From Mobula hypostoma (lineage: Eukaryota), in assembly GCF_963921235.1 (NCBI RefSeq), contig NC_086097.1, forward strand, positions 90,708,001 to 90,772,000: a DNA stretch of 64,000 nucleotides, in the 5' to 3' direction. Both the position numbers and the translations under genes were made by a program. Shown here piece after piece: positions 6,030 to 63,460 of this stretch. Position 1 is the first letter of the stretch; each line of letters opens with the position of its first letter. Under the pieces are notes generated by a model that worked only from the letters and a program-made list of their open reading frames with translations, made no database searches and had not been told where the DNA came from.

Positions 6030-6340
6030 ATGGCCTCAGAGCTGTGTGTCAGACATGGTTATAAGCAGCACTGGGGCCCCAAAGGGGACTGTTTTGGTTT
6101 CCTTCCTGTTTACCCCGTATACTTTGGACTTAGATACAACACTGAGTCATGTCATCTGCAGAGATTTTCTGGTGATTCAGCAATAGTTAGGTGTATAAAG
6201 GGTGGACAGGGGGATGAATACAGGGCTCTGGTAGAGGATTTTGTCAAATGGTGCAAGCTGAATCATCTGCAGCTCAACATTAGTAAGACAAAGGAGATGG
6301 TGATGAACTTTAGGAAGACTAAGCCTGCACTGCTCCCTGT
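6030..6340 (+). pseudogene. Non-LTR RT fragment (Rex1/L2-type)
   Basis: CHLQRFSGDSAIV (degenerate FSDD) and WCKLNHLQLNISKTKEMV motifs. Confidence 0.75.
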
Positions 6341-7700
6341 GAGTGAGAACAAGTTCCGCTAGGCGGAGGAATAGTGTAGTGGTGGAGGGGAACTGGTTGG
6401 GTCTGGTGTCCAGAAAAAAAATTGAGAGCTTTGAAGCCTTCCTGGTGGGGTTGGAGTTTTACAGGGACTGGACATCCATAGTAAAAATGAGATGATGAGG
6501 TCCAGGGAATGTGAAATCATTGAAAAGATCTAGAGTGAGTGAACTGTCAATTTTTGTAGGTAGGAAAGAACTGATCTAGAAGGGATAAAACAGAATTGAG
6601 GTATGCAGTTCAGTGGGGCAGGAACAAGCTGAAACAATGGGTCTTGCTGGACTTGTGGGTTTGTGGATTTTGGGTAGGAGGTAGAAACAGGAGGTGCGGG
6701 GTGGGGGAACTATGAGGTTGGTGGCAGTGAGTGGGAGATCCCCAGAATCAATAAGTTTGGTGATGGTGTGGGAGACGATGGCCTGGTGTTCCTTAGTGGG
6801 ATCCTGTTCGAGGGGTAAGAAAGAGGAAGTGCCTGAGAGATGGTGCTGGGCCTCAGCAAGGTAGAGGTCAGTATGCCAGACTACTAGAGCACCCCCTTAT
6901 CTGCGGGTTTGATGGTGAGGTTAGGATTAGTGCAGAGGGAGTGGAGAGCAAAGGTCTCGGAAGGGCTGAAGTTGGAATAAGAGAGAGGAAAGTTAAAGTC
7001 TAGACAGTTAATATCCCATCGGCAGCTGGCAATGAAAAGATCCAGAGCAGGCAGAAGACCAGGGCTAGGTGTCCAGGAAGAGGAGGCTGGTTGAGAGTTG
7101 AAGACAGGAGAAGGAGTCACGGGTGTGGGATGGAGAGTCCTTACCAAAGAAATAGGCTCGGAGATGGAGGCAGCAGAACTCAGCATCGTAGTGGACGTGG
7201 CACTCACTGAGGTGTAGGTGCAGGGGGACAAAAGTGAGGCCTTTACTGAGGATAGAACGTTTTGCCTCAGAGAGGGGAAGGTCGGAGGGAATAGTGAAAA
7301 CCCGGCATGGATGAGAGCTGGGATCGGAGGGGGGATGTGAGTTAGTAGTGTCTGAGGGAAGGGAGGTTTGCAGCATTCAGGGATGGTGGGGTGAGAGAAA
7401 GATGGAGTTTCTGAGGGCCCGAGGGCTGTCGGTGGGATGTGAGAGAGACGGGATTGCGGAGTGGTGGTGGGGGAAGTGGAGACGGGGGTTCCAGCGTCAG
7501 CCCATGAAGACCTGGCCTGGTGATCAAGGCCGGAGTCGGAATTGGAGGTTGCGCAATCGGCACTTTGGTGATGTCCAAGGTCGCTGGAACCCACATTGAT
7601 GGCGACGGAGTCCGGGTTATGAATCTGCTCTGGATTATTAGAGCCGTTGAGGTCGGCAGTGGGGTTCACCGTCTGGAGATGTCCTGCAGGTTCAGTGATG
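6341..7700 (-). pseudogene. Penelope ORF N-terminal/RT fragment, frameshifted
   Basis: Penelope motifs ILSKGLTFVP, NPNLTIKPADKG and FYLLPKIHK (about 6661-6687). Confidence 0.85.
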
Positions 7701-9509: not shown

Positions 9510-12500
9510 ATTTAGTCATGTCCTCATGACATTCAAATAATTTGCCATCCCTTCCTGCAAAACACAGAGCCCAATCCAAGTGCAGAAAGCAGTGACACCG
9601 CTCCCCAAAACAGTGGAGACCACACTCTCTGATCCTTGGTAGGAAAAGCTTGAGTATATCTGGTGTAGTGGTCCGTGATGACTAAGACATCCACCGTGTT
9701 GCTGGCATCGGGTTCTACAGCCAGGAAATCCATACACACCAGGTCCAAAGGTCCCGCACTCTGCAAGTGTGACAAAGGATCAGCCTGCCCAGGCAGCGTC
9801 TTCCGCCGTATACAACGAATGCAGGACTTGCAGTAGTCTTCGACCTCCGACCTCATTCGGGGCCAGTAAAACCGGTTCTTGAGCAATCCATAGGTCTTTT
9901 CCACCCCCAAATGTCCAGAGTCATCATAGAGGGACTTCAACACAACCTTCCGATACTTCTCAGGCAGGACCAGCTGCCAACGCCGAGGTTGGTCCAGGGG
10001 TGATGTTACATGGTATAAAATTTGGTTCTTCAACCTCAACCGAAGCCATCCTCTCAGTAACAGAGACACTGAGATGTGTTTTTCCCGTGTCACATGCCCC
10101 TCTTTAACTGCGTGCCAGACAGGGCCAATGCTTGGGTCACCTAACTGACCAGCGGCCACTTCCCCAGGGCTTAACTCCAGCAGCTGCGTGGTCTTCAGAG
10201 CAGTCAGGTCACAGTAAACTAGGGGTATGGCATCATCGGACGCCCTCAATGGGTCCACTGCGCGATCTGGCCTCTCCTTTTTCTTGGCCTGCATGGTGAT
10301 TGCAAACTGACACATGGCCTTCACCCCGGATGCAGGAAGACTCTTCCACTCCTCGTCCCTCTCCAGTTCCTCATGCCTCAGTTGGGACAGAGCATCAGCA
10401 TCGACATTCCGGCTCCTCGGCTGGTACTTCAGGATGAAATCATATACAGACAACACTGCCAGCCACCGATGGCCTGTGACATTCAGTTTTGCTGAGGTCA
10501 GGATGTAGGTAAGTGGGCTGTTGTCTGTCCCCACTTCCAACTTGGCCCCATAGAGATAGTCACTCAGCTTATCCACCACCGCCCATTTCAATGCCAGGAA
10601 CTCCAACTTGTGGGTGGGATAGTTTCTCTCAGAGAGTGACAAATGCTCCAGGCCTCAGCCCGGAGCCCTGATCCTGATACAGGACAGCCCCTAATCCCTC
10701 ACGTCTGGCATCGGTGTGCAGCACATAGGGCAATTGGGGGCCCGCAAAAGCCAGCACTGGAACATGAGTCAGCATCTCTTTCAGCGACTGAAAAGCCTCC
10801 TCACATTTGTCATCCCATCTCTGGCCAAAGGGCTCTGACAGGTTCAAATGTTCTCCAACCTCCCGTCCTCTCCTCCCTTTCCCTTTCTGTCCCAGGGGAG
10901 GGTAGCCGTGCAGAAGCTGGTTCAAGGGGTGACTCATCTTGGCATAGCCCTTCACGTATCTCCGGTAGTATCCACAGAACCCCAAGAACGAGCGCAGAGC
11001 ACTCACAGTCTGGGGCCTCGGCTAAGTGGTCACCACTTCTATCTTAGCCGGGTCAGTGACTACTCCTGTTTGTGCGATTATGTGTCCAACATAGCTAACA
11101 GACGTCTGGCAGAACTGACATTTGTCCAAGGAAAGTTTTAATCCTTCATCCTTCAGTCGGTTCAGCACCTTCATTAACCTCGCTTCGTGTTCTTCCAAGG
11201 TGGATCCAAATACTATCAGGTCATTCAAATATACCAGCACTTCAAGCAATTTCTTCTCCTCCACCATCTTCTCCATGACCCTCTGAAAGGTGGCAGGGGC
11301 TCCCGATATGCCCTGGGGCATCCTTTCGAGCTGGAAAAATCCCAGAGGGCATATGAATGCAGTCTCACTCATCGAGATCTGGTAATATCCACTCCACAAA
11401 TCCAGTACGTTGAACCACTTCACTTCCCCCCACTCAGTCAGGCCAGCGCATCTTCGGCCCTGGGACCATATACTGGTCAGGGACGGTGTGCCTGTTCAGG
11501 GTCCTGTAATCCATACACATACGAATCTTCCCATTTTTCGTCCAGGCCACTACTATTGGGGACGCATAAGGGCTTCGGGACTCCGCGATGATCTTGGCTA
11601 CCTTCAACTTGCACAAATGCTGCTGCCAGTCGCCGCAACCTCTCTCGAAACGGAGTGCCTTCAATCACCCAGATGGTGTGGCGAGTGCTCCTGGAACAAC
11701 CCCCATTCAACTCATCAAGGGAGAAAACATCTTTCAGCGTCAACATCTTCTCCACCAGCCTTTGCTTCCAACAGAGGTGAGGTCCCAAAGTTAAAAGCTT
11801 CAGCGGTCAACTTATCCCTGTTTTCTAATAGCTCTCCCCCAGCAAGCCTCACGGGGGCACTATGCATCACCATCACCGGGAACAATCGTGCCAAGGGCAC
11901 CCCGCGCTTAAAGTTGACCTCCCTTTCCGTAGTGTTCCTGACGATCACCACCATCCCACGTGCCTGTACCACCAAGGGCTTCTGCAACTCGAGTCTCACC
12001 AGCACCTCGGCCGGAAATCTTGATTCCCCCTCGAGATCTTCCGGGGTGTCCACTAAAAGGGCTTCACCCTCAGGCACCCCGGGGAATCTGGAGGTTGTTA
12101 TCACTCTCTTTACTTCCCCGGGTCGTACCACCCTGGGCTTCGACTGGGCACACCACGTCATTCCTCTTTTAAATTCCGTGTCCAGCCCAGTGCGGCCACA
12201 CACTTCCTTAAACGCGGTTTGAAACACTGGGTGCACCAACAAGGTCTCCAAAATATCTTCACCTGCCTGCTCCTTGCAGGCCCCCAGGAGCCTTCGTACA
12301 ATAGGGGTGTTGGTACCCACCAGAATGGACACACCCCCAGTCTCAACTGGGTCTGGGCAAGCCAGCACCATGGCCTCATGAACTGCAGACACTCCCACCC
12401 TCAGCCTCCAAAAACTCCAGTTTCACTGACAGATAACTGTCGTACGGGTAATCACCAGAGCTGTTACCTCAAATTTCCAGCACACTGAAGGGTGTCAAGG

Positions 12501-23149: not shown

Positions 23150-23335
23150 GCAAGAGCCAGGATAACAAGTAAAATGCTGGAGGAACTCACTGGGTCTATA
23201 GAGGAAAATGGACAGTTGGCATTTTGGATTGAAAACTTTGATCCTGACATTTCCCTCCACAGATGCTGCATGACCTGCTGAGTTCCTCTGGCATCTTGTC
23301 TATTGCTCCAGATTGCAGTAACCAGTATCTTATGT
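23150..23335. mobile_element. Palindromic pair of Penelope termini, central core largely deleted
   Basis: AAATGCTGGAGGAACTCA ... TGAGTTCCTCTGGCATCTT inverted arms. Confidence 0.7.
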
Positions 23336-23689
23336 CTACAAGGGTGGGGATGACATTTTACAGCTGTACGAGATGTTGGTCAGTCTGCAGCTGAATTATT
23401 TTGCACAGCTCTGGTTGCCATATTAGCAGAAGGATATAATTAAGCTAGAGGGTGCAGAAAAGATTCATAGCAATATTGCTGGGATGGGAGGGATTGAGTT
23501 ATGAGGAGAGACTGAATAGGCTGGGACTGTGCTCCCTGGAGTAAAGGAGGCTGAGGGGCGAACGTATAGATGTTTATAAAGCCATGAAATGGTTAGATAA
23601 GGCAGATGATCACAGCCTTTTTGTAATCAGCTCTTTGGGCCTGAGAGTGTTGGGCTCCGAGATTTTTAGAGCACCTGAAATGGTTAATT

Positions 23690-23926
23690 CACAAACATGA
23701 GAAAACCTGCTGGTGCTGGAAATATAAAGCATCATACACAATATACTGGAGGAACTCAGCAGTCCAGAGACCATCTATGGAAAAGAATAAACGGTTGATG
23801 TTTCAGGCCAAGACCATTCTTTAGTCCTGAAGAAGGGTCTCGTTCTGAAGCATTGACTTTTTATACTTTTCCATAGATGCTACCAGCCTTGCTGAGTTCC
23901 TCCAGCATTTTGTGTGTGTTGCTTTG
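23690..23926. mobile_element. Palindromic Penelope-terminus mini-element with TSD
   Basis: Inverted arms around 23820; 11-bp TSD AATGGTTAATT at 23679-23689 and 23927-23937; hammerhead-like core at 23822-23859. Confidence 0.9.
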
Positions 23927-23963
23927 AATGGTTAATTGTTTAATAAGAGTTGTTAACTGTGGA

Positions 23964-25873
23964 GCTCCTGCCCCACCGAACTCGTTTCTGCATACCTCAA
24001 CATGGTTTTATCCCCCCTTGTTCAATCCCTTCCTACCTATGTTCGTGACACTTCTCACGCTCTTAAACTTTTCGAAGATTTTAAGTTCCCTGGCCCCCAC
24101 CGCTTTATTTTCACCATGGATGTCCAGTCCTTATATACTTCCATCCCCCATCAGGAAGGTCTCAAAGCTCTCCGCTTCTTTTTGGATTCCAGACCTAATC
24201 AGTTCCCCTCTACCACCACTCTGCTCCGTCTAGCGGAATTAGTCCTTACTCTTAATAATTTCTGCTTTGGCTCCTCCCACTTCCTCCAAACTAAAGGTGT
24301 AGCTATGGGCACCCGTATGGGTCCTAGCTATGCCTGCCTTTTTGTTGGCTTTGTGGAACAATCTATGTTCCGTGCATATTCTGGTGTCTGTCCCCCACTT
24401 TTCCTTCGCTACATCGACGACTGCATTGGCGCTGCTTCCTGCACGCATGCTGAGCTCGTTGACTTTATTAACTTTGCCTCCAACTTTCACCCTGCCCTCA
24501 AGTTTACCTGGTCCATTTCCGACACGGCCCTCCCCTTTCTAGATCTTTCTGTCTCTGTCTCTGGAGACAGCTTATCCACTGATGTCTACTATAAGCCTAC
24601 TGACTCTCACAGCTATCTGGACTAAAGAGGAATAGTCACCCTGTCTCTTGCAAAAATGCCATCCCCTTCTCGCAATTCCTCCGTCTCCGCCGCATCTGCT
24701 CTCAGGATGAGACTTTTCATTCCAGGACGAGGGAGATATCCTCCTTTTTTAAAGAAAGGGGCTTCCCTTCCTCCACTATCAACTCTGCTCTCAAACGCAT
24801 CTCCCCCATTTCACGCACATCTGCTCTCACTCCATCCTCCCGCCACCCCACTAGGAATAGGGTTCCCATGGTCATCACCTACCACCCCACCAGCCTCCGG
24901 GTCCAACATATTATTCTCCATAACTTCCGCCACCTCCAACGGGATCCCACCACTAAGCACATCTTTCCCTCCCCCATCTCTCTGCTTTCCGCAGGGATCG
25001 CTCCCTACGCGACTCCCTTGTCCATTTGTCCCCGCCATCCCTCCCCACTGATCTCCCTCCTGGCATTTATCCTTGTAAGCGGAACAAGTGTTACACATAT
25101 CCTTACACTTCCTCCCTTACCACCATTCAGGGCCCCAGACAGTCCTCCCAGGTGTGGTGACACTTCACCCTGTGAGTCGGCTGGAGTGATATACTGCGTC
25201 CGGTCCTCCCGATGTGGCCTTCTATATATTGGCAAGACCTGACGCAGATTGGGAGACCGCTTTGCTGAACACCTACGCTCTGTCCGCCAGAGAAAGCAGG
25301 ATCTCCCAGTGGCCACACATTTTAATTCCACATCCCATTGCCATTCTGACATGTCTATCCACGGCCTCCTCTACTGTAAAGATGTAGCCACACTCAGGTT
25401 GGAGGAACAACACCTTATATTCCGTCTGGGTAGCCTCCAACCTGATGGCATGAACATCGACTTCTCTAAATTCCGCTAAGGCCCCACCTCCCCCTCGTAC
25501 CCCATCTGTTACTTATTTTTATACACACATTCTTTCTCTCACTCTCCTTTTTCTCCCTCTGTCCCTCTGACTATACCCCTTGCTGATCCTCTGGTCCCCC
25601 CCCACCTTGTCTTTCTCCCTAGGCCTCCTGTCCCATGATCCTCTCATATCCCCTTTGCCAATCACCTGTCCAGCTCTTGACTCCATCTCTCCCCCTCCTT
25701 GTCTTCTCCTATCATTTTGGATCTCCCCCTCCCCCTCCAACTTTCAAATCCCTTACTCACTCTTCCTTCAGTTAGTCCTGACGAAGGGTCTCAGCCTGAA
25801 ACGTTGACTGCACCTCTTCCTATAGATGCTGCCTGGCCTGCTGCGTTCACCAGCAACTTTGATGTGTGTTGCT
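23964..25873 (+). mobile_element. Penelope-like element, 5'-truncated: RT, GIY-YIG endonuclease, 3' UTR, terminus
   Basis: TMDVQSLYTSIP, QTKGVAMGTRMGPSYA, LRYIDDC, LPFLDL, VYYKPT; GIY-YIG VIYCVRSSRCGLLYIGKT..RFAEH..PVATHFN; a few stops and frameshifts. Confidence 0.95.
25773..25810 (+). ncRNA. Minimal type I hammerhead ribozyme in the Penelope terminus
   Basis: TAGTC-CTGACGA-AGG(GTCTCAG)CCT-GAAA-C-GTT-GACTG: CUGANGA and GAAA core, helix II AGG/CCT, helix I TAGTC/GACTG, GUU cleavage triplet, loopless palindromic helix III (AACGTT). Confidence 0.8.
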
Positions 25874-27405
25874 ATATTTCCTTGTGTTCTTCTCGAGCGA
25901 CTCGCTCTTTGTAATGTGGACTTCTGGTGCTTTCTGTTTAAGCTTGTTAAGTTTATTTTGATAAGTTCAGGGATTCCACATTACTAGTATTATTCAAGCA
26001 GATGCCCGATTAGCACTAATCGCAGGGTCCTAATTTTGAGAATGTTACTCCTCGCCGAACCACTGATGGCTTTATGGAATTGTTATGAATCAACTCTCGT
26101 CGTCAACTCTACATCAGAGTCTGTCCTTGCTCTGCACTTGGGTTCCAATATTGCCAGTGCACATCGTGACTCTTTGTCTCAAGGCAGGGGAGTCTAAAAC
26201 TAGAAGGCATAGGTTGAATGTAAGTGGGGAAAGATTTAAAAGGAATTAGAGAGGCAAGTTTTCACACAGAGGGTTGTGGGTACATGGAATGAACTGCCAG
26301 AGGAAGTGATAGAGGTGGGAGCAATTAGAGCATTTAAAAGACATTTGGACAAATGCATGAATAAGAAAGGGTCCGAGAGTTACGGACTAAATGCAGGCAA
26401 ATGGAACTAGCTCAGAAAGACACCTTGCTCAGCATGGACTAATTCTTCAGATGGGCTTGTTTCCATGCTGTAGAGCTCTGACTCTGCACAAAGGTAATGA
26501 CAGTTTATCTAAATTCTTGTGTAGACAGGGCAAGGTGGTGCAAGATTTGCAGTCATTAAGTATGGAGTGCGAACTATAGCAACAAGGTCACAAAATAACA
26601 GAGTGGAAGACGAAGAGGGACAGCTGAAAATGTACAGCAGGTTTTTATCTTAAAACAACAGACCCTCAGTAACTGCATTTAGAATGAGGTGCCTTGGACA
26701 GTCAGCGGGAGATGTTGGTGGTTTGATCACTTCCTTTATATGATTCCTTTTAAACCTAAGCCTTCCCTGTCCCTCACTGTAATTCTGTCAGAAGTACCAG
26801 TGAAATAGAGCAAACCACGACTTTCCCCAATTTAACTTTCTAAAATAACCATTAAGATCATGTATTTACTCTTGGTCCAGAACAAGTTATAATTGAAAGT
26901 ATCATCAGATTCTGTGTCAAAAGGAAGCATTTGGGAGGCAGGGCAGCTTCCTAACGGCTTGCTTTTCATGCAGAGGATTGAAATTTGATTATAATGAGAC
27001 TGGCCAAGAGTAGGCTAGGAAGAGAAATTTTCTATGTATAATATTCGTCTTTTCATTGGATTTATGATGTCCATCAGGATGATTGGCAGATTTAAGGCAG
27101 CAGATTCATTCATGATTCTGACAAACAATGAAAGGTTAAAGCTTAGCAAAGCCATTCGGAGATCTGCCTCATTTGTTAAATTGCTGAGGTCAAAGCCTTT
27201 GTTTCAGCCTGGTTTGTGGAATGCATGAGTTGTCTATAAATGAAAATTATTTTCTCATTCACACCTACTTCTTAGTGATCATTGTTTTCTAGGTAAGGGG
27301 GCAGAAAAGAGGCATCTGCAAACTTTTTTCCAGCCATTAAGAAAAGCATAGGGGAATTTCAGAGATCTCTGTCCAGTGGAACGTCCCTTCCAATACAGAT
27401 ATCTG

Positions 27406-28300: not shown

Positions 28301-28459
28301 CTGTACATTATTCAGTAACTGTTGAATAACCCATCCCAGATTGGAAATCTGTCCAGTGCTGAATCATCACAAATGTCCCCGCTCTTCATAATACAGTGCA
28401 CAACTGGCCAAAGGCTCTATTTTACGCTGAACAGAAGAGACGATTTAAATTTTGAGTGA

Positions 28460-28632
28460 ACAGGCACAAATTGCTGGAGGGATTCAGCAAATCAGGCAGC
28501 ATTTGTGGAGAGAAATAAACAGTCAATGTTTTGGACCGAGACCCTTCATCAGGACTTGATGAAAGGTCTTAGGCTGAAGGATTGACTGTTTATTCCCCTC
28601 CAAAGGTGCTGTCTGACTTGCTGAGTTCTTCT
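28460..28632. mobile_element. Palindromic pair of Penelope termini with back-to-back hammerhead-like cores
   Basis: AATAAACAGTCAAT ... ATTGACTGTTTATT arms; centre CTTCATCAGGACTTGATGAA. Confidence 0.85.
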
Positions 28633-29184
28633 AGTTTACACCATTTGTTTCTTGGATTGCTAATCCAGCACCAAACCACAGAGATGAGTATAATTGATTT
28701 ACTCAGAAAACCTTTAATACATCGGCATTAATCATTTAGAAATTCCATCTTGCAGACAGACTCGACTTCAGATCTGGAAATTTAATCACAAGTTGTCATA
28801 CCTCTTCCTAAAAATAAGTAAACTTATCTATATTGCTGTATTTAGCCATATAGTACCATTGACTGCCTATTCAATTGATGTTTCTCACACAAACTTTCTT
28901 ACACCATGTTTCTTCCGCTTCCCATTCTGCCTTGCCACATTTGGTATCCAAGATACTATGCTGATGCCCACCAGTTCCATGTGCTCCACTAGCAAAATTT
29001 ACGTAACTATTTGTGGATTATACTTGTGGTCCATCATCCTTCCTTGTCTTCCTAAATGTCTCTCCAACCTAATTGCAGATGACCACAACCTCACATTCTT
29101 AGGAATATAGAAAATGAGGAAATAGGAACAAAAGTAGACCATTCAAACCCTCAAACCTGTTCCATCATTTAGTAAGGTCATGCC

Positions 29185-33823: not shown

Positions 33824-34858
33824 TAATAGACAATAGACAATAGGTGCGGGAGTAGGCCATTCGGCCCTTCGAACCAGCACCGCCATTCACTGTGATCATG
33901 GCTGATCATCCAGTTCCTGCCTTATCCCATAACCTTTGATTCCGCTATCTTTAAGAGCTCTATCCATCTCTTTCTCAAAAACATCCAGAGATTTGGCCTC
34001 CACTGCTTTCTGGGGCAGAGCATTTCACATATCCACCACTCTCTGGATGAAAAAGTTTTTCCTCAACTCCATTCTAAATGGCCTACCCCTTATTCTTAAA
34101 CTGTGGCCTCTGGTTCTGGACACACCCATCAGTGGGAACAGGTTTCCTGCCTCCAGCGTGTCCAATCCCTTAATAATCTTATATGTTTCAATCAGATCCC
34201 CTCTCATCCTTCTAAATTCCAGTGTATACAAGCCCAGTCGCTCCAAGCTTTCAACATATGACAGTCCCGCCATCCCGGGATTTAACCTTGTGAACCTACG
34301 CTGCACTCCCTCAATAGCAAGAATGTACTTCCTCAAATTTAGAGACCAAAACTGCACACAATACTCCAGGTGTGGTCTCACCAGGGCCCTGTACAGCTGC
34401 AGAAGGACCTCTTTGCTCCTATACTCACTTCCCCTTGTTATGAAGGCCAGCATGTCATTAGCTTTCTTCACTGCTTGCTGTACTTGCATGCTTGCTTTCA
34501 GTGACTGATGTACAAGAACACCTAGATCTCATTGTACCTCCCCTTTTCCTAACATGACTCCATTTAGATAATAATCTTCCTTCCTGTTCTTACCACCAAA
34601 GTGGATAACCTCACATTTATCCACATTAAACTGCATCTGCCATGCATCCGCCCACTCACCCAGCCTGTCCAATTCACCCTGCATTCTCATAACATCCTCC
34701 TCACATTTCACACTGCCACCCAGCTTTGTGTCATCTGCAAATTTGTTAATGTTACTTTTAATCCCTTCATCTAAATCATTAATATATATTGTAAACAGCT
34801 GTGGTCCCAGCACTGAACCCTGCGGTACCCCACTGGTCACCGCCTGCCATTCCGAAAG
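33824..34858 (-). pseudogene. CR1 LINE RT C-terminal half and 3' UTR, relatively young
   Basis: VTSGVPQGSVLGPQLFTIYINDL, KFADDTKLGG, LVRPHLEYCVQFWS, RTRGHSL; (CTATTGT)n tail. Confidence 0.93.
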
Positions 34859-35434
34859 GAATGTCCAGTTTAGGAACAGAAGTAGACCATTCGGCCCGTT
34901 GAGTCTGCTCCACCATTCTATCATGGGCTGATCCACTTCATCCAGTCATCCCCACTCCCCTGCTTTCACCCCATACCCTTTGATGCCCTAGCTAATCAAG
35001 AGCTTATCTATCACTGCCTTAAATACACCCAATGACTTGTCCTCCACAGCCGCTCATGGCAACAAATTCCACAGATGACAATAAGTTCCACAGATAAAAA
35101 TTTTCCACAAAAATGTAAAATGATTTGTCCTACCCCTTACAGAGAAGCTGAAAGACTTTAACTTGACCATTCAGTCTATTCTTAACGATAAACTGTCCAG
35201 TTTGATGATATTTCTCTCCTTAATAAGGGCTCTTCCAGTGATTGCATTTTGGCCCACACTGCACAAAGACACCAGGAGTTCCCAATGGGCTCACAGTCAG
35301 GTTTTCATCTTCTGTACCTCAGTAACATTACTCACACATGTCAGTCTATCTGTCCGTACATTCAAATAGCATCCAGCCCTTTCCTTCCTGGAGAATGCAC
35401 AGTTCTTGAGTGAGGTGCAAGTGTGCCATGCAAT

Positions 35435-36749: not shown

Positions 36750-36876
36750 CAAAGAGAATACAGATGCTGGAATCTGGAGCAGCACACAAAGCACTGGAGG
36801 AACTCAATATGTCAGCAGCATCTACAAAGGGTAATGGACAGTCAACATTTCAGACTGAGATATCTCATCAGGACAA
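36750..36876 (-). mobile_element. Penelope terminus with hammerhead core (36839-36874)
   Basis: - strand GTC-CTGATGA-GATATCTCAGTCT-GAAA-T-GTT-GACTG. Confidence 0.75.
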
Positions 36877-38449: not shown

Positions 38450-38645
38450 AAAACAGAATATTTTGGAAATACTCAGCAGGGGAGGCTGCAACAGTGGGAA
38501 GAAAAATGGAGTTAATGTATCAGTTCCAGACCTAGGGTCAGAACCCATGAAGACCATTCTGATGAAGGGACTTCGACCTGAAATGTTAACACTATTTCTC
38601 TTCCCACAGATACAGCCTGACCTGCTGATTATTTCCAACATCTGC
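38450..38645. mobile_element. Palindromic pair of Penelope termini; + strand hammerhead core at 38556-38590
   Basis: TTGGAAATACTCAGCAGG ... CCTGCTGATTATTTCCAA arms; CTGATGA-AGG..CCT-GAAA-T-GTT. Confidence 0.75.
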
Positions 38646-39039
38646 AGGGTGAATAAAAATGGAATGAATGTAGGTTTGAGTAAATGGTTGATTGATGGTC
38701 AGTGCAGATCCTATGAGCCAAAGTGACTGTCCCTGTTCTATATCTCCTTGTGACTAATATTGGCCATGCAGCGATTTAGTTGGATAAGCTATCGAAGAAT
38801 GGAGAATGACGGGTGGTGCTTAGGCATGGTCCAGCTGTTGTCATGTTGTACCACAGAGCAGTCTACATTTCTATCCAAGTTGCACTCAAGGCATTAAGGA
38901 ACAATTGAGTAGGTGGGATTTGGTGCCTGCCCAATTTTAGAGGTGGACGCAGGGATGACTTGTTCTTTTCCCTCGTGACTATCAGTAAACCGGTTGAGCT
39001 GTCTGACCTCCATCAGTTCTGGTCAGCCCATTACAGGGA

Positions 39040-41405: not shown

Positions 41406-41788
41406 CAGTACTGTGCAAAAGTCTTAAGCAAATATGAAAAATCTGTAAAGCAAAGATGCTTTCAAAAAATAATGACATTGTTTCTAAATATCAAAATAAT
41501 TACTATAAAGAGAAGTAAACAGTAAAGAACTAACTCAGATCAATATTTGGTGTGACCACTCTAAAAACTGTATCAATTCTCTTAGGTAACCTGACATGCA
41601 GTTTTTAAGAAAATCGGTTGGTTGGTTGTTTCAAGCATCTCTGAGAACTTGCCACAGTTCTACTGCAGACGTTGGCTGTCTCGCTTGCCCTGATCTCAAC
41701 ATCTTCAAGGCAGCCTTGATGAAGTTGAGTTCAGGGCGCTGTGAAGGCCATACCATCTGAGGGTGCCTAAGACTTTTGCATAGTACTG
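41406..41788 (-). mobile_element. Tc1/mariner internal-deletion derivative
   Basis: TIR CAGTACTGTGCAAAAGTCTTA.GCA / TGCCTAAGACTTTTGCATAGTACTG; TA at left flank; transposase remnant ELWQVLRDA*NN on the - strand near 41625-41660. Confidence 0.85.
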
Positions 41789-42184: not shown

Positions 42185-42375
42185 ATGCCGGACATCTGAA
42201 ATACAAGCAGAAATGTAGAGATACTTGGGCGGTCAGGTGAAGAGAGTGAAAAAGTGATGCTTCAGGTTGAAGACCTTACATCAGGACTCACTAGAATCTC
42301 ATTAACCTGAAAAGTTAACTCTTTTTCTCTCTCCACAGATGCTGCCTGACTGGCTGAGTACTTCCAGCATTCTTG
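42185..42375. mobile_element. Palindromic pair of Penelope termini, degenerate
   Basis: Inverted arms around CATCAGGACT; AGATGCTGCCTGACTGGCTGAGT tail. Confidence 0.65.
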
Positions 42376-46580: not shown

Positions 46581-47119
46581 CATGTCCACGAGCTCTCCTC
46601 CCACCCCTATTCTCCTTCGTCAGGGCTAACTTACAGTTGGCAGTTCACCTGTCAGTGCAGTGTTTGGTATGTGTGAGTAAACACACACACATCCACAGGG
46701 AGAATTTGTAAACTCCACAAAATCAACTCCCAAGACCAGGATTTAATTTGGGCAGCTGGAATTGTAAACCAGCTGACCTCGCTGTGCTGTATTGTATCAC
46801 CCACTAACTGCTTCAGCTTTCAAGTGGAATTAACATTGCTGATGGTCGTACGTTCTTCCTGTCTGTTCTGATGAATTTGCCTTTGTTTCAAGTGTCAGCA
46901 CTGATCATGTGTGGTGAAGTACAAATCATTCTCTTCCAATGAACTGACTTAATCCCTTTCTCAGATCATTCACAATGCAGCGCACTCAAACTATTGCAGG
47001 CAACCTTAAGGTAACGTGAAGTCAAAAATTTAAGGAATGCCGACTAACTCACTTTAACTGGGTAGATTCTGTGTTAAAGTAGTCAGGATGGCAGGATAAC
47101 ACGAGGCTTAAGCTGTATC

Positions 47120-54509: not shown

Positions 54510-55160
54510 TGAGTGTTTTGCGCCAAAACCCTTCGGCAGGACTGGAGAAAAGAGCTAGAGAGTAAATTTAAAAGGTGGGTGGAGGGGAGTGAGAAACACA
54601 AGGTGACAGGCGAAACCTGGAGGGGGAAGGATGAAATAAAGAGCTGAGAAGTTGATTGGTGAAAGATACAGAAGGCTATGGCCTCATCACGACAGTGGAG
54701 AAGGCCATGGATGGACATATCGGAATGGGAATGGGAAGTGGAATTAAAATGGGTGGATACTGAGAGATCCTGCTTTTTCTGGTGGATGGAGCATAGGTGC
54801 TCGGTGAAACAGTAGCCAAATCTATGTCAGGTCTCACTGATATACAGGAGGCCACACTGGGAGCACCAAACATAGTATCTGACCCCCACAGACTTACAGG
54901 TGAATTGTTGCCTCACCTGGAAGGACTGTTTAGCACCCTGAATGGTAGTGAGGGAGGAGGTCAAGGAGCAGGTATAGCACTTGTTCCGCTTGCAAGGATA
55001 AATGCCAGGAGGGAAATCGGTGGGGAGGGACAACTGGACAAGGGAGTCACATAGGGAGTGATCCCTGCAGAAAGCAGAAAGTGGGAGAGGAGGGAAAGAT
55101 GTGTTTAGTGATGGGATCCCGTTGCAGGTGGTGGAAGTTTCACAGAATTATATGCTGCAC
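54510..55160 (-). mobile_element. Penelope 3' part (GIY-YIG region, UTR, degenerate terminus)
   Basis: GIYPCKRNKCYTC..FQVRQQFTC..YYVWCSQCGLLYISET. Confidence 0.85.
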
Positions 55161-58029
55161 GTTGAGTGGCCACCCATTTTAATTCCACTTCCCATTCCCA
55201 TTCCGGTATGTCCATCTATGGCCTTCTCCACTGTCGTGATGAGGTCACATTTAGGTTGGGGGAAGAACTCCTTGTATTCCATTTAGTATGGACATTGATT
55301 TCTCAAACTTCCGCTTATTGCCCCCTCCCCACCCCTGCCCCCCTTCACCATTTCCCATCCTTTTCCTCTCTCTCACCTTATCTCCTTACCTATCCTTCGC
55401 CTCCCACTGGTGTTCCTTGTAAAGTATTGTGTGAGTATTCGTAGCGTCAGAGTGCGTATGATGTCAGGACGTAGAGAGGTAAAAAATGGAAGTCTGCTGA
55501 ATAAACGTGGTTGTTCAATCTACAGCGGTGTCCGAGTCACATCAATATTACATGGTGTCAGAAGAAATCGCAAAAAAAAGGAAGAGAAGACACGTAAAAG
55601 ATGTCACAGTTACAGCCACCGTCGAGTTTAAGCCTACAAGGTAATCTTGTTGAGAACTGGAAAATGTGGATCCAGAAGTTTGAGCTGTTTTGCACCGCTA
55701 CTGGCGTAGCTGAAAAGACGGAGAAGGTGCAATGTGCTACGTTTCTGCATATGGCGGAGGAAGAGGCAATAAAGGTTTGCATCACGTTTGTCTTCCAAGA
55801 TGATGAGCAAGATAAAAATGAAGAGTTGAAGAAAAAGTTTCAAGATTACTGCAAACCGAGAAAAAACCTACCGTACATCCGACACAAGTTTTTCACGAGG
55901 GCTCAAGGACCAATAGAGACCATAGACGCCTATGTAACAGATCTGAAGAACAAGGCATTAAAGACCGTGAGTTTGGACAACTGCATGACTCTTTAATACG
56001 TGACAGGATTGTATGCGGCATACGAGATGATCAAGTGAGAGGCAGGCTATTGAGAGAGGTGGATCTTACATTAGAAAAGGCGATTGATGTTTGCCGTGCC
56101 AGCGAGATCACGTCAAGTCAGGTTAAAGTGCTCAATGAAGGGATTGAAGTGCACAAAATAAAAACTGTGAAAATTGGCAAGAGTAGGACAAAGCCAGCTC
56201 CACAGGATGATCAAAAGGAAGTTAACTGCAACAGTTGTGGTTATAAACATGGATACAGAAAATGTCCAGCCTTTGGTCTGACATGCAAGTTATGCCAGAA
56301 AATAAATCACTTTACAAAGATGTGCAGATTGAAGGAGCACGCAAGGAAAATGCATGCTGTGGAACAGAGTGAGGGCAACAGTGACATGTTCATTGGCAAA
56401 GTTGAAGTGGAACAGGAGGGTTGCCTCAAGAATACTGACAATGCAGAGATGGAGGATGAAGATGATTGGACTCAAGATCTGATAATAAACAGGAGGAATG
56501 TGACATTTAAGCTTGACACTGGGGCAAAGGGCAATGTAATGTCAGCAGAAACATTCAACTCACTGGATATCAGAGGAAGACTAAAAAAATCCACTTGCAA
56601 ACCTGTCGCATATTTCGGCTACAAGACGGCGCCATTAGGCAAACAAGCACTCACCTGTGTGTGCAAAGGACAAAAACATAAGATAGAGTTTGAAATAGTA
56701 CAGCAACATGTTTCAGCAATACTGGGCAAAGCAACATGCACAAAGCTAGGCCTGGTGAAGCCAATCTATGGTGTTGAACAAGAAAATGACATTCTCAAAG
56801 ACTTTGATGACCTGTTTTCTGGATTAGGATGTTTACTAGGGAAACACCATATCCAGATTGATCCAACTATTGCACCAGTCGTGCATGCCCCGAGAAAGAT
56901 TCCAGTAGCTCTCAGGGATCAAGTAGCGGAGGAGCTATTCAAAATGGAACAGATGGGAGTCATAACAAGACAAATAGAACTGACCGACTGGGTGAATAGT
57001 ATGGTGACAGTGGTCACAGATAAAAAGACGAGGATTTGCATGGATCCACAAGATCTCAACCAAGCCATTAAAAGAGAGCACTATCCACTGCTCGTGGTTG
57101 AAGAGTTTGTCTCCCACATGCCTAATGCGAAATACTTTTCAGTATTAGACACAAATCAAGGTTTCTGGTAGATCAAGCTGGATGAAGAAAGTTCCAAATT
57201 ATGCACTTGCAACATGCCCTTAGGGAGATATCATTTCCTACGTCTACCTTTGGGATTTCTTCTGCATCAGAGGTATTCCAGAGATCCGTGGCACAAATGA
57301 TTGAAGGCCTGGACGGGGTGGTCAACATCATTGATGATGTGCTGATATGGTGTGACACAATTGAGGAACATGATCAGAGACTGAGGAAGCTCCTGGAGAG
57401 AGCACGTGAGTCCAACCTAAAACTGAACAAAAGTAAATGTAAGATCAGAACTACAGAGATCAAATATATAGGTCATGTACTGAGCGCTGATGGGCTAAAA
57501 CCAGATGATGAAAAGGTCAGAGCTGTGGTACAGCTACCACCACCCGAAGACAAGCAAGAACTATTGAGGTTCATGGGCATGATACAGTATCTTGCCAAAT
57601 TCACTCCCAACTTATCAGAGGTCGGTGCTCCACTCCGAAAGCTACTAGAGAGCAACACTGAATGGCATTGGGAAGACAAACAAAAGAAAAGTTTTGACAC
57701 ATTGAAGCAGTTGGTTACCAATGCACCAGCACTTAAGTTCTATAATGTCAATAAACTGGTGACGATATCTGTGGATGAGTCATAAAGCGGGGCGCTGAGA
57801 GTGGACCCAAGATGCAGGACACAGACACTGAAGTACTAGGAACGGGACAAGGATGCAGAACCTGGTCAAGAACATGAACAAGAAGCAGTGAAACTGGACA
57901 AGGAACCATGAACTAGGAGCCTGGGCTTGGACCCCGAGGCAGAGACTGGTCCAGGACCCAGAACCTGGGTCTTGCCTCGGGCTCGGGCCCCAGAACCAGG
58001 CAAGGACATGACATGACTGCAGGACTGGA

Positions 58030-58290
58030 GGCTGGGGTCTTGAGGCTTGAGCTTGGAGACAGGCTTGGGGTCTTGAGGCTTGAGCTTGGAGACTGGTTTG
58101 GGGTCTTGAGGCTTGAGCTTGGAGACAGGCTTGGGGTCTTGAGGCTTGAGGCTGGAGACAGGCTTGGGGTCTTGAGGCTTGAGGCTGGAGACAGGCTTGT
58201 GGTCTTGAGGCTGGCGTCTTGAGGCTTGAGGCTGGGGTCTTGGGTCTTGAGGCTTGAGCGTGGAGACAGGCTGGGGTCTTGAGGTTTGGG
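58030..58290. repeat. 33-bp tandem repeat inside the LTR
   Basis: GGGGTCTTGAGGCTTGAGCTTGGAGACAGGCTT, about 5 full plus partial units. Confidence 0.9.
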
Positions 58291-58711
58291 GCCGCTAACT
58301 CGGAGGCTGGAGCTCGGAGACAGACCGGGAACTGTACATCAACAGAGAGCCGGGACTTATCCTTCGAAAAGCCAGGACTCATCTTTAACACGACACTAGC
58401 ATGAGACTGGACAGTACATAGACATAGAGCCAGGTCTTATCCTTAGACAAGCTGGGACTCAACTTTATCTCTACACCAAGGTGGGACAGGTCCATCTGTC
58501 GAGTAATGGCAGAACGGCCGGACTTACTCAACAGAGGCAAAGACAAGACAAGACAGGTCCCCCTGCAGGGCAACAGCAGAACAGCCTGACTTACCCCCCA
58601 GAGGCGAGGACAAGACAAGGCAGATCCCCTCACAGGGCAACGGCAGAACGACCTGACTTACCCCATGGAGGTGAGGACAAGAAGAGACAAACACTGAAGA
58701 ATGACAGACAG

Positions 58712-60446
58712 GGGGGCGTCACATGATGACATGGGATTGAGACATGTAAATCCAGCTCTCCCGTAAAAAATCAGCAAAGTACTGTTTAAACAAAGTAAAG
58801 TTAATAAATACTTTCCGAAAACTACTTATAAACTTTGTAAGACTACTCTACGATATGCCTCGTAAACCACAACAGAAGAAGTCTGTTGTTATGAAGTCGC
58901 TGCAAGATGGGAAGAAAAAAGGGCCTACTGCAGCGATGGAGCCTCGGATTCAGGTTGGATCTCCTTCAGAGGAGACGCATTTTACCTCTGGCGTAGAAGA
59001 ACAGGGAGCAATGGCGGCGGTAGCGGTCTCTCGGAAGAAGATGCCGGAAATGTGCATGCCCAAAGAAGTACGCATGCGCAAATTGACACAAAGTAAACTA
59101 CAAGAACCGACGGCCACGGCAACTGAACGTGACTCAGAGTCAGAATCGGATTCAGCAGACAACACAGATGAAGAAGAGGAGGAAGAACTGGAAGAGACTG
59201 GAAATAAAGGAGACGACTCATAAGAGAGGCTTTATTGCAATTAACGGTTGAACTAAGAAAATTAAGAACAGAGCTTAGAGACGTGAAGATGTGCTATGAT
59301 AAAGCTATGAAAAGAGGACAAAATGGATAAGAAACTTCAGAAGATGGAAAGAACAATGGAGCATATTAACGATAGAGTGGAAAAAACAGAAATTGATGTG
59401 CTTGTCTGGAACACGGAAAGAAATCGACTCTTGGAGAAAGTGGACGTGTTGGAGAATTTTAGTAGACGAAATAATATTAAAATTGTTGATCTTAAAGAAG
59501 GTATAGAGGGAGATAATTCAATAGAATTTTTTCAAAGATGGATCCCGAAAACCTTGCAAATGAAAGAGGAGGGCCGATTAATTGAAATTGAGCGGGTACG
59601 TAGAGCTCTAAGACCAAAACCACAAGATGACCAATATCCACGATCAATTTTAATAAAATTCTTAAGATTTCAAGACAAAGAAAGGATTCTACAGGCGGCT
59701 GCCCAAGCTGCCAAGAAGAGAAAAGGGCCACTGGTGATAGAAGGGAAGAAAATTCTTTTCTACCCTGACATAAGTTATGAACTTTTGAAGAGAAGGAAAA
59801 AATTTAATCCAGTGAAAAAAGCCCTATGGGATCACAGTTATCAATTTATATTGCGTTATCCTGCAACCTTGAAGATTTTTTTGGCTGGTGGAAAAAAAAG
59901 ATTTTTTGACGATTACCGGAAAGTGGAGGAGTTTGTGCGAGATTCTTTGAATATTCACCAGATACAAGAACAAATCCAGGGGACCGAGATGGATTGAAGA
60001 TGAAGACTGGATCAAGGATTAGGTCTGTTGGATTTTTAGGGGGATGAATATATAAATATATTATTAATTATATGAGGGAGGAGAAGAAAGGTTAAAATTT
60101 GAGGAATACTAGCTGGGAATAATGACATTAATTTTTTTTATATATATATACAATTTTTTAGATTTTAAGAGATAAATATGAAACATTTTTGAATATTTGG
60201 AGCCCTTATTTACAGCTCCAATGATAAAGATCTTGGTTCCTTGGGGAAAGTAACAAATATATATTAAATTTATTTTTAATCCCATGGAGCATGTGCAAAC
60301 CTTCCAATATTCAGGCGGCTCTTTTTTTCTCTTCTTTTTTTCTTTTCTCTTCAGGTAGGAGTATATATCGGAGGGGGGAGGGGGAGGGTAGATATTATTT
60401 TCTCATGTATTCACTTTGAAAACTCAATAAAAATTATATTAAAAAA
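58712..60446 (+). mobile_element. L1-clade element with ORF1 only (HAL1-like)
   Basis: TSD AAGAATGACAGACAG at 58697-58711 and 60447-60461; G-run 5' start; AATAAA plus A-tail; ORF1 present, ORF2 nearly absent. Confidence 0.88.
58855..59997 (+). pseudogene. L1 ORF1p (acidic N-terminus, coiled coil, RRM, CTD), frame broken near 59220
   Basis: LENFSRRNNIKI, IEIERV.R, PRSILIKFLRFQDKERIL, GKKILFYPDIS, LRYPATLKI. Confidence 0.88.
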
Positions 60447-63324
60447 AAGAATGACAGACAGTTCCATCTCTGCATTGGCGATTGAACTAGACTGTGGTGC
60501 AGGTGTGGTATCCAGGCAGACAGTCAAGCAAGGGGGGGAAGACAGGGAGGGGAACAGAACAGTCCAGCAGGGAATCCCTGGTTTGCAGAGGTATTTATGT
60601 CTCAGCCCCAAAACGAGAATCATGTGCCTACAACAGAAACTGGGGAAAACCAGAAACCCTGGAATAAGGAATGATGGACCAGACAGTGAACCAGAATATG
60701 GACTCCACGGACTGGACCATGACAGGATGCCAGTTTGGAGGAAATAGGAGCTGTTATACTGCAGGGTGGGAGGCCTGTGACGTATGGATCACAATCATTT
60801 ACGGACTGTCAATGCCGATATGCACAAATCGAGAAGGAATTACTCGCCATAGTTTATGGGTATGAGAAGTTCCACCAATATGTATATGGCAAAGAAATCC
60901 AGGTTGAGAGTGATCACAAACAACTTGAGAGCATCTTCAAAAAGCCACTCCACCAAGCTCCTATGAGGCTGCAAAGGATGCTTCTCAGGCTACAGAGGTA
61001 CACTCTCACAGTCACCTATAAGCCAGGAAAAGAACTGTACATCGCTGATGCTTTGAGCCATGCTTACCTCAAAGAGCAAAAGGAAGAGTTGCTAGGAAGA
61101 GAGCTGGAGGTCAACTGGGTTACACCTCAACTACCCATCTCTGAGGAGAAGTTGAACATGTTCAGGAAAGCGACTGCAGATGATCCTGAAATGCAAATGC
61201 TAAGAGACATTACAATGAATGGATGGCCAACAGAAAGAAAAGATGTTCCAAAGGAAATGCAGAAATACTGGACATTTAAAGAGGAAATCAGCTATGCATC
61301 AGGACTACTGTTTAAAACGGCAAAACTCATCGTACCAAACCAAATGAGACAGGAAATACTCAACAGAATTCATGAATCACACCTGGGGATAGTGAAATGT
61401 AAAGAAAGAGCAAGGGACATTCTCTATTGGCCAGGCATGTCAACTCAGATAGAAGACATTGTGTCTCAGTGTGCTGTCTGTAATGAAAACAAAAACAGCA
61501 ATCCAAGAGAGCCTCTGCTTCCCCACCCACTACCAGGAAGACCATGGGAGAAGATTAGCACAATCTCTTTCACTACAATGGTGCAGAATATCTGCTTTGT
61601 GTGGACTACTATTCAAAATATCCAGAGATCACCAAGTTAAGTGACACATCCAGTCGAGGTGTCATTACCACAATGAAGCCGACATTCGCAAGACGTGGTA
61701 TTCCAGATATTGTTGTTAGTGACGATGGTCCACAATATGCCAGTGGTGAGTTCAGAGGGTTCTCAGAAAGCTGGGAATTTCAACATGTTACTTCCAGTCC
61801 AGGGCACGCTCAGTCTAATGGACAAGCAGAGGGAACTGTACAAACTGTCAAGAACATGCTCAAGAAGGCACAAAGCAGCAACGGTGACCCTTACATTGCT
61901 CTGCTTGAATACCGCAACACACTGACTGAGGGTGTGGGGTTCTCTCCTGCGCAGCTGTTGATGGGACATTGTCTGAAGTCCAAACTGCCAGCATCCACAA
62001 CTCTACTGACTCCTGAAGGTAATGCTCAAGTACGTGACAAGCAAAAGTACAAGCAGATAAAGCAAAAGAGCTACTATGACAGACATACAAGACAGTTGCC
62101 AGATCTGCATACAGGTGAAAATGTCAGAGTACAGAGAGGAGACACTTGGCAACCAGCTGTGGTTGTGAACAGACATCAGCAACCAAGATCCTTCATAGTT
62201 CGGATGGAAGAGTCTACAGGAGGAACAGGAAGCATATGCTGAAGACAGGCGAGAGGGAGTTTCCACGCACAGATGCACAGGACATTTCCGTATATACAAA
62301 CATGGAAACAAACGACACCAAGAGTGATGCAGACGGTAAAGACACAGAGGTCACTCGAGAGACTGACACGGATGAAGGACAAGCACAGTCACAGTTGTAT
62401 CACACACGGTCTGGGAGACAAGTCAAACCTCCAGCTCGATACAGAGACTAGACATACATACAGTCTCACACAGTTTGAGGCAAAGTCTCACGTGTTATAA
62501 GTTCCAAGGTGTGAAATAAAAGGTTTATTAGTCTATGTTAGTAAAAGAAAATACACTGCTGTTAGTATTGTAAGATACAATGCAGAATACAGTACAAGAA
62601 GTTAAGATTTTTTTAGTTTATGTCATGGTTGTTGCACTGTAAAAAGGGCATATCTAGAGGTCTTGTTTTGGTAATTCACAGTGTTTTAAAAAAAATCTTG
62701 AGAAGGGGAATGTAATGTATTGTGTGAGTATTTGTAGCGTCAGAGTGCGTATGACGTCAGGACGTGGAGAAGTAAAAAATGGAAGTCTGTTGAATAAACA
62801 TGGTTGTTCAATCTACATCGGTGTCCAAGTCACATCAATATTACACTCTGAACCCCTTTTTTTTCTTTTATGGCCTTCTGTCTCTTTCACCAATCAACTT
62901 CCCAGCTCTTTACTTCAATCTTCCCCCTCCAGGTTTCACCCATCACCTGGTGTTTCTCTCTCCCCTCCCCCCACATTTAAATCTGCTCTCTAGCTCTTTT
63001 CTTCAGGCCTGCTGAAGGGGTTTGGCCCAAAACATCGAATGAACTCTTTTCCTAGATGCTGCCTGGCCTGCTGAGTTCCTCCAGCATTTTGTGCCTGTTT
63101 CTTGGACTTCTAGCATCTGCAGATTTTCTTTGGTTTGTGACACATTTTACAGAGTTGTTCTCCCAGTCTGTTGCTGAGAGCTCCGTCCAACTCCACAACT
63201 CCAAACCCCAAAATGACAAAAATTGCAGGCAAGTGGGAACACCCCCACCTGCAGGTTGCCCTCCAAGTCACGTTGCACCCAGACAAGGAAATACAGCTTA
63301 TCAGTATTTGTAATTCAAACATCA

Positions 63325-63460
63325 CAGATGCTGGAAATCAGAAGTATATACAGACAATACTGGAAGTATTCAACAGATCAAGCAGCATCTAACGAAAGCT
63401 CTCTGACTGGAAACTCTGTTTCTCTGAACTGCTGAGTGTTTCCAGCAATTTCTGTTTTAC
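63325..63460. mobile_element. Palindromic pair of Penelope termini, core deleted
   Basis: CAGATGCTGGAAAT..CTGGAAGTATTCAACAG versus CTGCTGAGTGTTTCCAGCA arms. Confidence 0.6.

Follow-up and report, generated by a model that had tools for sequence, protein, structure and literature searches.

A minimal type I hammerhead ribozyme motif lies at positions 25773-25810 (plus strand) of the 64,000-nt stretch of the Mobula hypostoma genome analysed here (hereafter, the window). It occupies the 3'-terminal pLTR of a dead Penelope-like element (PLE) in this ray, a Neptune-type copy truncated at its 5' end, and very probably does nothing there. Judged by its letters, the motif is a real minimal type I hammerhead of a known class, and the element context and PMC4209133 both uphold the original prediction of a Penelope pLTR hammerhead whose helix III is impossible alone. 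The parts of the hammerhead, all on the plus strand, are as follows.

25773..25810, plus strand: minimal type I hammerhead (sequence, RNAfold, descriptor scan, published consensus)
25773-25777 and 25806-25810, plus strand: helix I, UAGUC/GACUG (read from sequence)
25778-25784, plus strand: core CUGACGA, followed by an extra A at 25785 (read from sequence)
25786-25797, plus strand: helix II, GGGU-CUCA-GCCU, with strands 25786-25789 and 25794-25797 (RNAfold)
25798-25801, plus strand: GAAA, followed by C-G-U-U at 25802-25805; AACGUU spans 25800-25805 (read from sequence)
25801-25804, plus strand: palindromic ACGU, helix III without a loop (read from sequence)
25805, plus strand: scissile bond after this position, with a GUU triplet (read from sequence)

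Direct reading confirmed the letters claimed earlier for the CUGACGA/GAAA core, the 5-bp helix I UAGUC/GACUG, the GUU triplet and the loop-less AC/GU. Helix I closes the type I hammerhead with five pairs, one of them G-U. Helix II had been drawn as AGG/CCU; RNAfold instead leaves the A unpaired and pairs GGGU with GCCU, in agreement with the published CUGANGAH-G...C-GAAA arrangement. The window was found to hold 19 related termini, 14 of which were aligned (five that lack or truncate the ribozyme part were left out). The extra A that precedes GGGU/GCCU is an A in 10 of these 14 copies, and the GGGU/GCCU register is paired in 69.6% of cells versus 61.9% for AGG/CCU, a small difference. The 10.1-11.1 pair is G-U in this copy, where the consensus has G-C. 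The palindrome AACGUU is present as described, but helix III is formed by ACGU only.

Inspection of the surrounding sequence reveals the broken element that carries the ribozyme.

23957..25873, plus strand: 5'-truncated, broken Penelope-like element of Neptune type (tblastn, depth profile; the 5' edge is approximate)
23966..24619, plus strand: RT core remnant with a YIDD motif, then a stop and a frame change (P0001; Pfam RVT_1)
25074..25100, plus strand: zinc-finger-like linker CKRNKCYTY, in a frame that differs from those of the flanking parts
25190..25479, plus strand: GIY-YIG endonuclease remnant that runs to the ORF stop at 25477-25479 and is interrupted in frame by a stop at 25240-25242 (translation, alignment to P0017 and P0026)
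25480..25873, plus strand: pyrimidine-rich 3' untranslated region and pLTR end (sequence, depth profile)

Full-length relatives cover 23966-25476 of the element in tblastn. The RT core remnant matches Pfam RVT_1 at E 7e-6 with 26.3 bits, under the 29.6 cut-off; its best match is 91% to a Mobula hypostoma protein, followed by sharks at 66-76% and by invertebrate and unnamed proteins at ~55-62%. In the linker the last Cys is a Tyr, and the complete CKRNKCYTC is found in a sister copy at 54710-55096 (minus strand). The CX2-5CxxC linker pattern, described as a mark of Neptune and Nematis elements (PMC8557442), was matched in 14 of 26 relatives of at least 780 aa. A Pfam search of 25243-25479, within the GIY-YIG remnant, gave no match. 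RT, linker and C-terminal GIY-YIG follow one another in that order, and we call the element Neptune-type, a placement by linker and not by tree. The hammerhead lies in the pLTR ~300 nt downstream of the endonuclease stop codon. At the 3' edge of the element, family depth falls from ~1e7 to 1e4 across 25870-25891, and loose ends accumulate behind 25873. We also considered whether two direct pLTRs enclose the ORF (23822 and 25772). This was rejected, since the upstream sequence is 75% alike, its core is broken, and it forms part of a separate fold-back insertion that has a flanking repeat of its own.

Several other features of the element and the window were observed. An ATG 21 nt past the cut site opens a frame (MLPGLL...) that runs to the element end (25827-25873), and this may be where an ORF begins of the kind that other PLEs have in their pLTR and tail. 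A second PLE remnant on the minus strand (54528-55280) comprises the endonuclease, the complete linker and a terminus truncated within the ribozyme; a short piece in inverted orientation lies at 55165-55280. A third, more decayed remnant (6183-7355, minus strand) retains the N-terminal region and part of the RT. Broken LTR-retrotransposon pol remnants with RT, RNase H and integrase by Pfam lie at 9533-11495 (minus strand) and 55822-62242 (plus strand), and another RT remnant lies at 34529-34945 (minus strand).

This ribozyme belongs to a published class, of which it is an ordinary member; the dimer model is published too, as is the occurrence of the class in Neptune elements of fishes and coral. 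In fishes, minimal hammerheads reside in the pLTRs of three kinds of element, Xena, Poseidon and Neptune (Cervera and De la Pena 2014; PMC4209133), with the consensus CUGANGAH G...C GAAAN palindrome NUH. The present copy shares with those of metazoan PLE pLTRs the type I topology, CUGANGA plus an extra nucleotide, G at 10.1, GAAA, a loop-less palindromic helix III, a short helix I, a pyrimidine-rich 5' flank and the location at the 3' end of a 5'-truncated element; it differs in having U at 11.1 where the consensus has C (PMC4209133). The hammerhead listed for the Neptune element of Acropora digitifera (PMC4209133) likewise shows CUGACGA-A, a 4-bp helix II, a 4-nt loop and GAAA-CG-U, but has other helix I and II letters, a 3-bp helix I and GUC. 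The Poseidon hammerhead of Anolis (PAc; PMC11167929) is also a pLTR hammerhead of a vertebrate Penelope-like element; there, in contrast, the clade is Poseidon, cleavage was protein-assisted in vitro and the ORF starts inside stem II. Non-LTR retrozymes and newt satellite 2 (10.64898/2026.07.22.740005; PMC6155905) have the same type I form with a weak helix III, active there as a dimer, yet they form tandem arrays of short non-coding units, as opposed to the single copy on an RT-endonuclease remnant seen here. A non-LTR retrozyme was thus rejected as an identity for this copy, given one full motif in the window, its attachment to an ORF remnant and no tandem array.

With respect to cartilaginous fish, the carrier lists in Table S1 and Fig. 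S3 of PMC4209133 name none. Hammerhead retrozymes derived from pLTRs have been reported in one chondrichthyan (10.64898/2026.07.22.740005). Our literature search found no paper that joins Penelope and hammerhead with shark, elasmobranch or Callorhinchus, and the supplements of 10.64898/2026.07.22.740005 may cover the family. Dimers of PLE hammerheads are the subject of work by Lunse et al., according to the review PMC6765202.

To describe the state of this copy relative to its family, contigs of three sequencing runs were aligned at 80% likeness (121,287 records in run X1). The contigs of all three runs cover the terminus very deeply and fall off at ~25873; such coverage shows a very large family and gives no copy number. 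Among the positions listed, C makes up 76%, 89% and 87% of depth at 25805 in the three runs, and G makes up 66%, 87% and 81% at 25793. The C majority at 25805 means that the family triplet is GUC, versus GUU in this copy. In the 14 aligned window copies the 11.1/G12 dinucleotide is TG in 11, CA in three and CG in none; the centre of helix III is CA in seven, TG in three, CG in one and other in three; and the 17/1.1 dinucleotide is TG in six, CA in three, TA in three and CG in two. At two control columns, by comparison, 13 and 12 of the 14 copies agree. This TG/CA pattern is that of CpG decay, and C11.1 is therefore probably ancestral. In this copy the loss of C17 to CpG decay is demonstrated, and C11.1 was probably lost by the same route. 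The description of the ribozyme as intact accordingly holds for the conserved core, but not for 25805 and 25793, where the family majority is C and G, nor for the probably decayed CpG at 11.1. GUU triplets and U at 11.1 are both present in several published minimal hammerheads (PMC4209133), so neither change need silence this copy; GUC and GUA are the fastest triplets, and GUU is usable (PMC3138052).

On the basis of the published systems, a transcript of an active element would carry two pLTRs whose ACGU palindromes pair into a shared helix III; the helix I strands would swap, and each core would cut the other copy after its NUH triplet. Cleavage would be slow and would probably need the element's own protein for folding. 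The ancestor of the present copy may have used such a tandem-pLTR dimer, probably protein-assisted. The genomic copy has a single pLTR, its ORF is dead, and two positions of the ribozyme that are paired or at the cut site have probably changed by decay; its core was probably preserved by escaping mutation. Lacking a second pLTR, and with no plus-strand neighbour among the five evaluated that fits it, the copy is therefore most likely idle.

The alternative that survives best, although still improbable, is that this copy is a working cleavage site at which a read-through transcript is cut in trans with family transcripts or with the protein of an active element. Nothing is missing from the core, the palindrome or the 5-bp helix I, cleavage is compatible with GUU (PMC3138052), and sequences of the family occur in very large numbers, including in one run that we took to be RNA. 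That label is, however, a guess, no RNA data set is on record as containing the stretch, and among the contig pieces listed none ties RNA to this copy's own flank. The one raw-read run, of four runs, has no reads on the stretch, and contigs of the other runs cannot show RNA ends. As a monomer the copy favours a rod in RNAfold, in which GACG of the core pairs with CGUU. Published dimer rates are low, in that the Schistosoma minimal hammerhead is inactive as a monomer and weakly active as a dimer or trimer (PMC4209133). In Anolis, the Poseidon hammerhead requires the protein of its element for cutting and is dispensable for insertion in vitro, and no RNA-seq reads ended at its cut site (PMC11167929). 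In co-folding, the active double hammerhead of the present copy lies 11 kcal/mol above the best dimer fold; a published-type coral control lies 17 above its own, so these energies are indecisive for this copy.

Two further features upstream of the ribozyme were considered. The predicted fold of this copy contains a hairpin that might be a conserved "off-switch"; this reading was rejected, as base composition explains the hairpin: 65, 490, 545 and 1039 of 2000 shuffles were as good in four window copies, and more than 1000 in five metagenome loci. Just 5' of helix I, 25752-25775 holds a branch-point-like CTCAC and a pyrimidine tract with AG (25761-25775), resembling D. virilis, whose hammerhead has an intron end reported at helix I. 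The tract is absent from the metagenome loci and no joint among those listed supports splicing there, leaving a 3' splice site at helix I of this copy as a weak lead.

Next in standing, and very improbable, is the reading in which a long plus-strand transcript joins this copy with a neighbouring terminus of the window into an active dimer. About a dozen related termini had been predicted on both strands; both strands do carry them, and the number was an undercount, as the profile search returned 10 on the plus strand and nine on the minus strand (best E for the reversed window, 0.47). Ten plus-strand termini might seem to offer partners for such a transcript. Twelve of the 19, however, sit in six head-to-head inverted pairs whose regions fold into long hairpins, which would be expected to bury the ribozyme in its own antisense, and the ACGT palindrome is retained in one of the 14 aligned copies, namely the one at 25773-25810. 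Five of the nine other plus-strand termini were evaluated as partners, with the ACGU strands pairing and the helix I strands swapping, and none of the five gave a complete double hammerhead with this copy. The best of them is the following.

38559..38593, plus strand: terminus that retains both core boxes and forms one of the two arms of a fold-back element (helix III AUGU, helix I lost)

No other terminus of the five keeps both core boxes. With the 25773-25810 copy it forms four of four helix III pairs (one a wobble), but 0 and 2 pairs in the swapped helices I. In the remaining four the core is broken, and two or three of the four helix III pairs can form. The five are separated from this copy by 2-37 kb, and each of three of them is an arm of a long hairpin. 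Scanning 38 of the 52 long ORFs in the window revealed no host-gene domain, a result that applies to long ORFs and not to short exons. The suggested pairing with neighbours in a long transcript is thus not supported, given the hairpin pairs, the lone palindrome and the lack of fit in all five partners evaluated. A minus-strand copy near 36870 keeps its core and has a wobble palindrome but a broken helix II; being on the minus strand, it is unable to share an RNA with the 25773-25810 copy. Separately, a half hammerhead at 46614-46631 (minus strand) has the helix I strand and CUGACGA without the GAAA half, and is perhaps a truncated terminus of another family.

The identification as a hammerhead was assessed by pattern scans and by relatives gathered independently of the ribozyme. 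A full descriptor (core, helix II of at least 3 bp, loop-less helix III, NUH and helix I of at least 3 bp) has one match in the 64 kb on both strands, at 25773-25810, and 1000 dinucleotide shuffles average 0.001 matches per window. Taken by themselves, the two core boxes give 12 matches where 7.4 +/- 3.4 are expected, which is not above chance. Rfam hammerhead families have no match at gathering score in the window and none up to E 10 in 25400-26100, presumably because helix III is missing. Covariation in the 14 aligned, decayed window copies is not above shuffles (446 of 500 shuffles reach the paired share and 387 of 500 the score); this is expected of decayed copies, yet lends no support.

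For the independent relatives, 80 metagenome loci were fetched by RT similarity without use of the ribozyme, and 30 of these have at least 400 nt after the endonuclease. A hammerhead occurs on the sense strand 100-330 nt past the endonuclease in 7 of the 30, where 0.01 is expected; L018 and L019 are one locus within the seven, and L018 was measured from the end of its main endonuclease match. The remaining 23 have no hammerhead within 600 nt of the endonuclease. The motif in these loci agrees with the present copy in its core, its extra A, the 4 bp of helix II and the palindrome without a loop; the helix letters differ, with the pairing kept. It is the one listed for the Acropora digitifera Neptune element (PMC4209133). 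When the metagenome, viral and prokaryote collections were scanned for patterns of the sequence that follows the ribozyme, 0 loci matched. A coincidental fit to a short consensus, without descent from a ribozyme, is the least probable reading of all: the silence of Rfam, the folding energy of the copy, no better than shuffles (z -0.92), and the lack of covariation among window copies would allow it, but it is opposed by the 0.001 expected per window, the fit to the published consensus and the occurrence of the same motif at the same place in RT-related loci.

Inspection of the inverted pairs reveals a recurrent junction.

23690-23926, 28459-28651, 42208-42373, 38450-38652, 63345-63460 and 23162-23305: head-to-head fold-back elements
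23690..23926, strandless: older fold-back element in which two decayed termini meet head to head, with the junction at the 5' edge of the ribozyme core (profile search, folding)

The element at 23690..23926 is flanked by an 11-bp AT-rich direct repeat (23679-23689 and 23927-23937) and contains the nearest plus-strand neighbour of the ribozyme, whose core is broken (GAAG). Among the six pairs, the spacer between the cores is 2 nt in three and 17 nt in one, and two are deleted or asymmetric. In the metagenome locus L018 (24-222), a fold-back of 200 bp has a spacer at this same point, here of 12 nt. Palindromes at inverted junctions have already been interpreted as self-priming (PMC3846280), and the available text of that paper does not link such junctions to a hammerhead. 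We tentatively propose, as a rather doubtful possibility, that the hammerhead fold may fix where the cDNA folds back and self-primes, yielding ~200-bp head-to-head elements; if true, the ribozyme would shape integration with or without cutting. The single locus matters little, and the family is very abundant in this genome. Candidate roles of PLE hammerheads are processing, protein-assisted cutting or none, as passengers, and a large ray family with many fold-back derivatives suits this question, for which a young full-length element would serve better than a dead copy. A 51-bp inverted repeat at 41687-41737 (86% self-match) was also observed and is unrelated to the termini.
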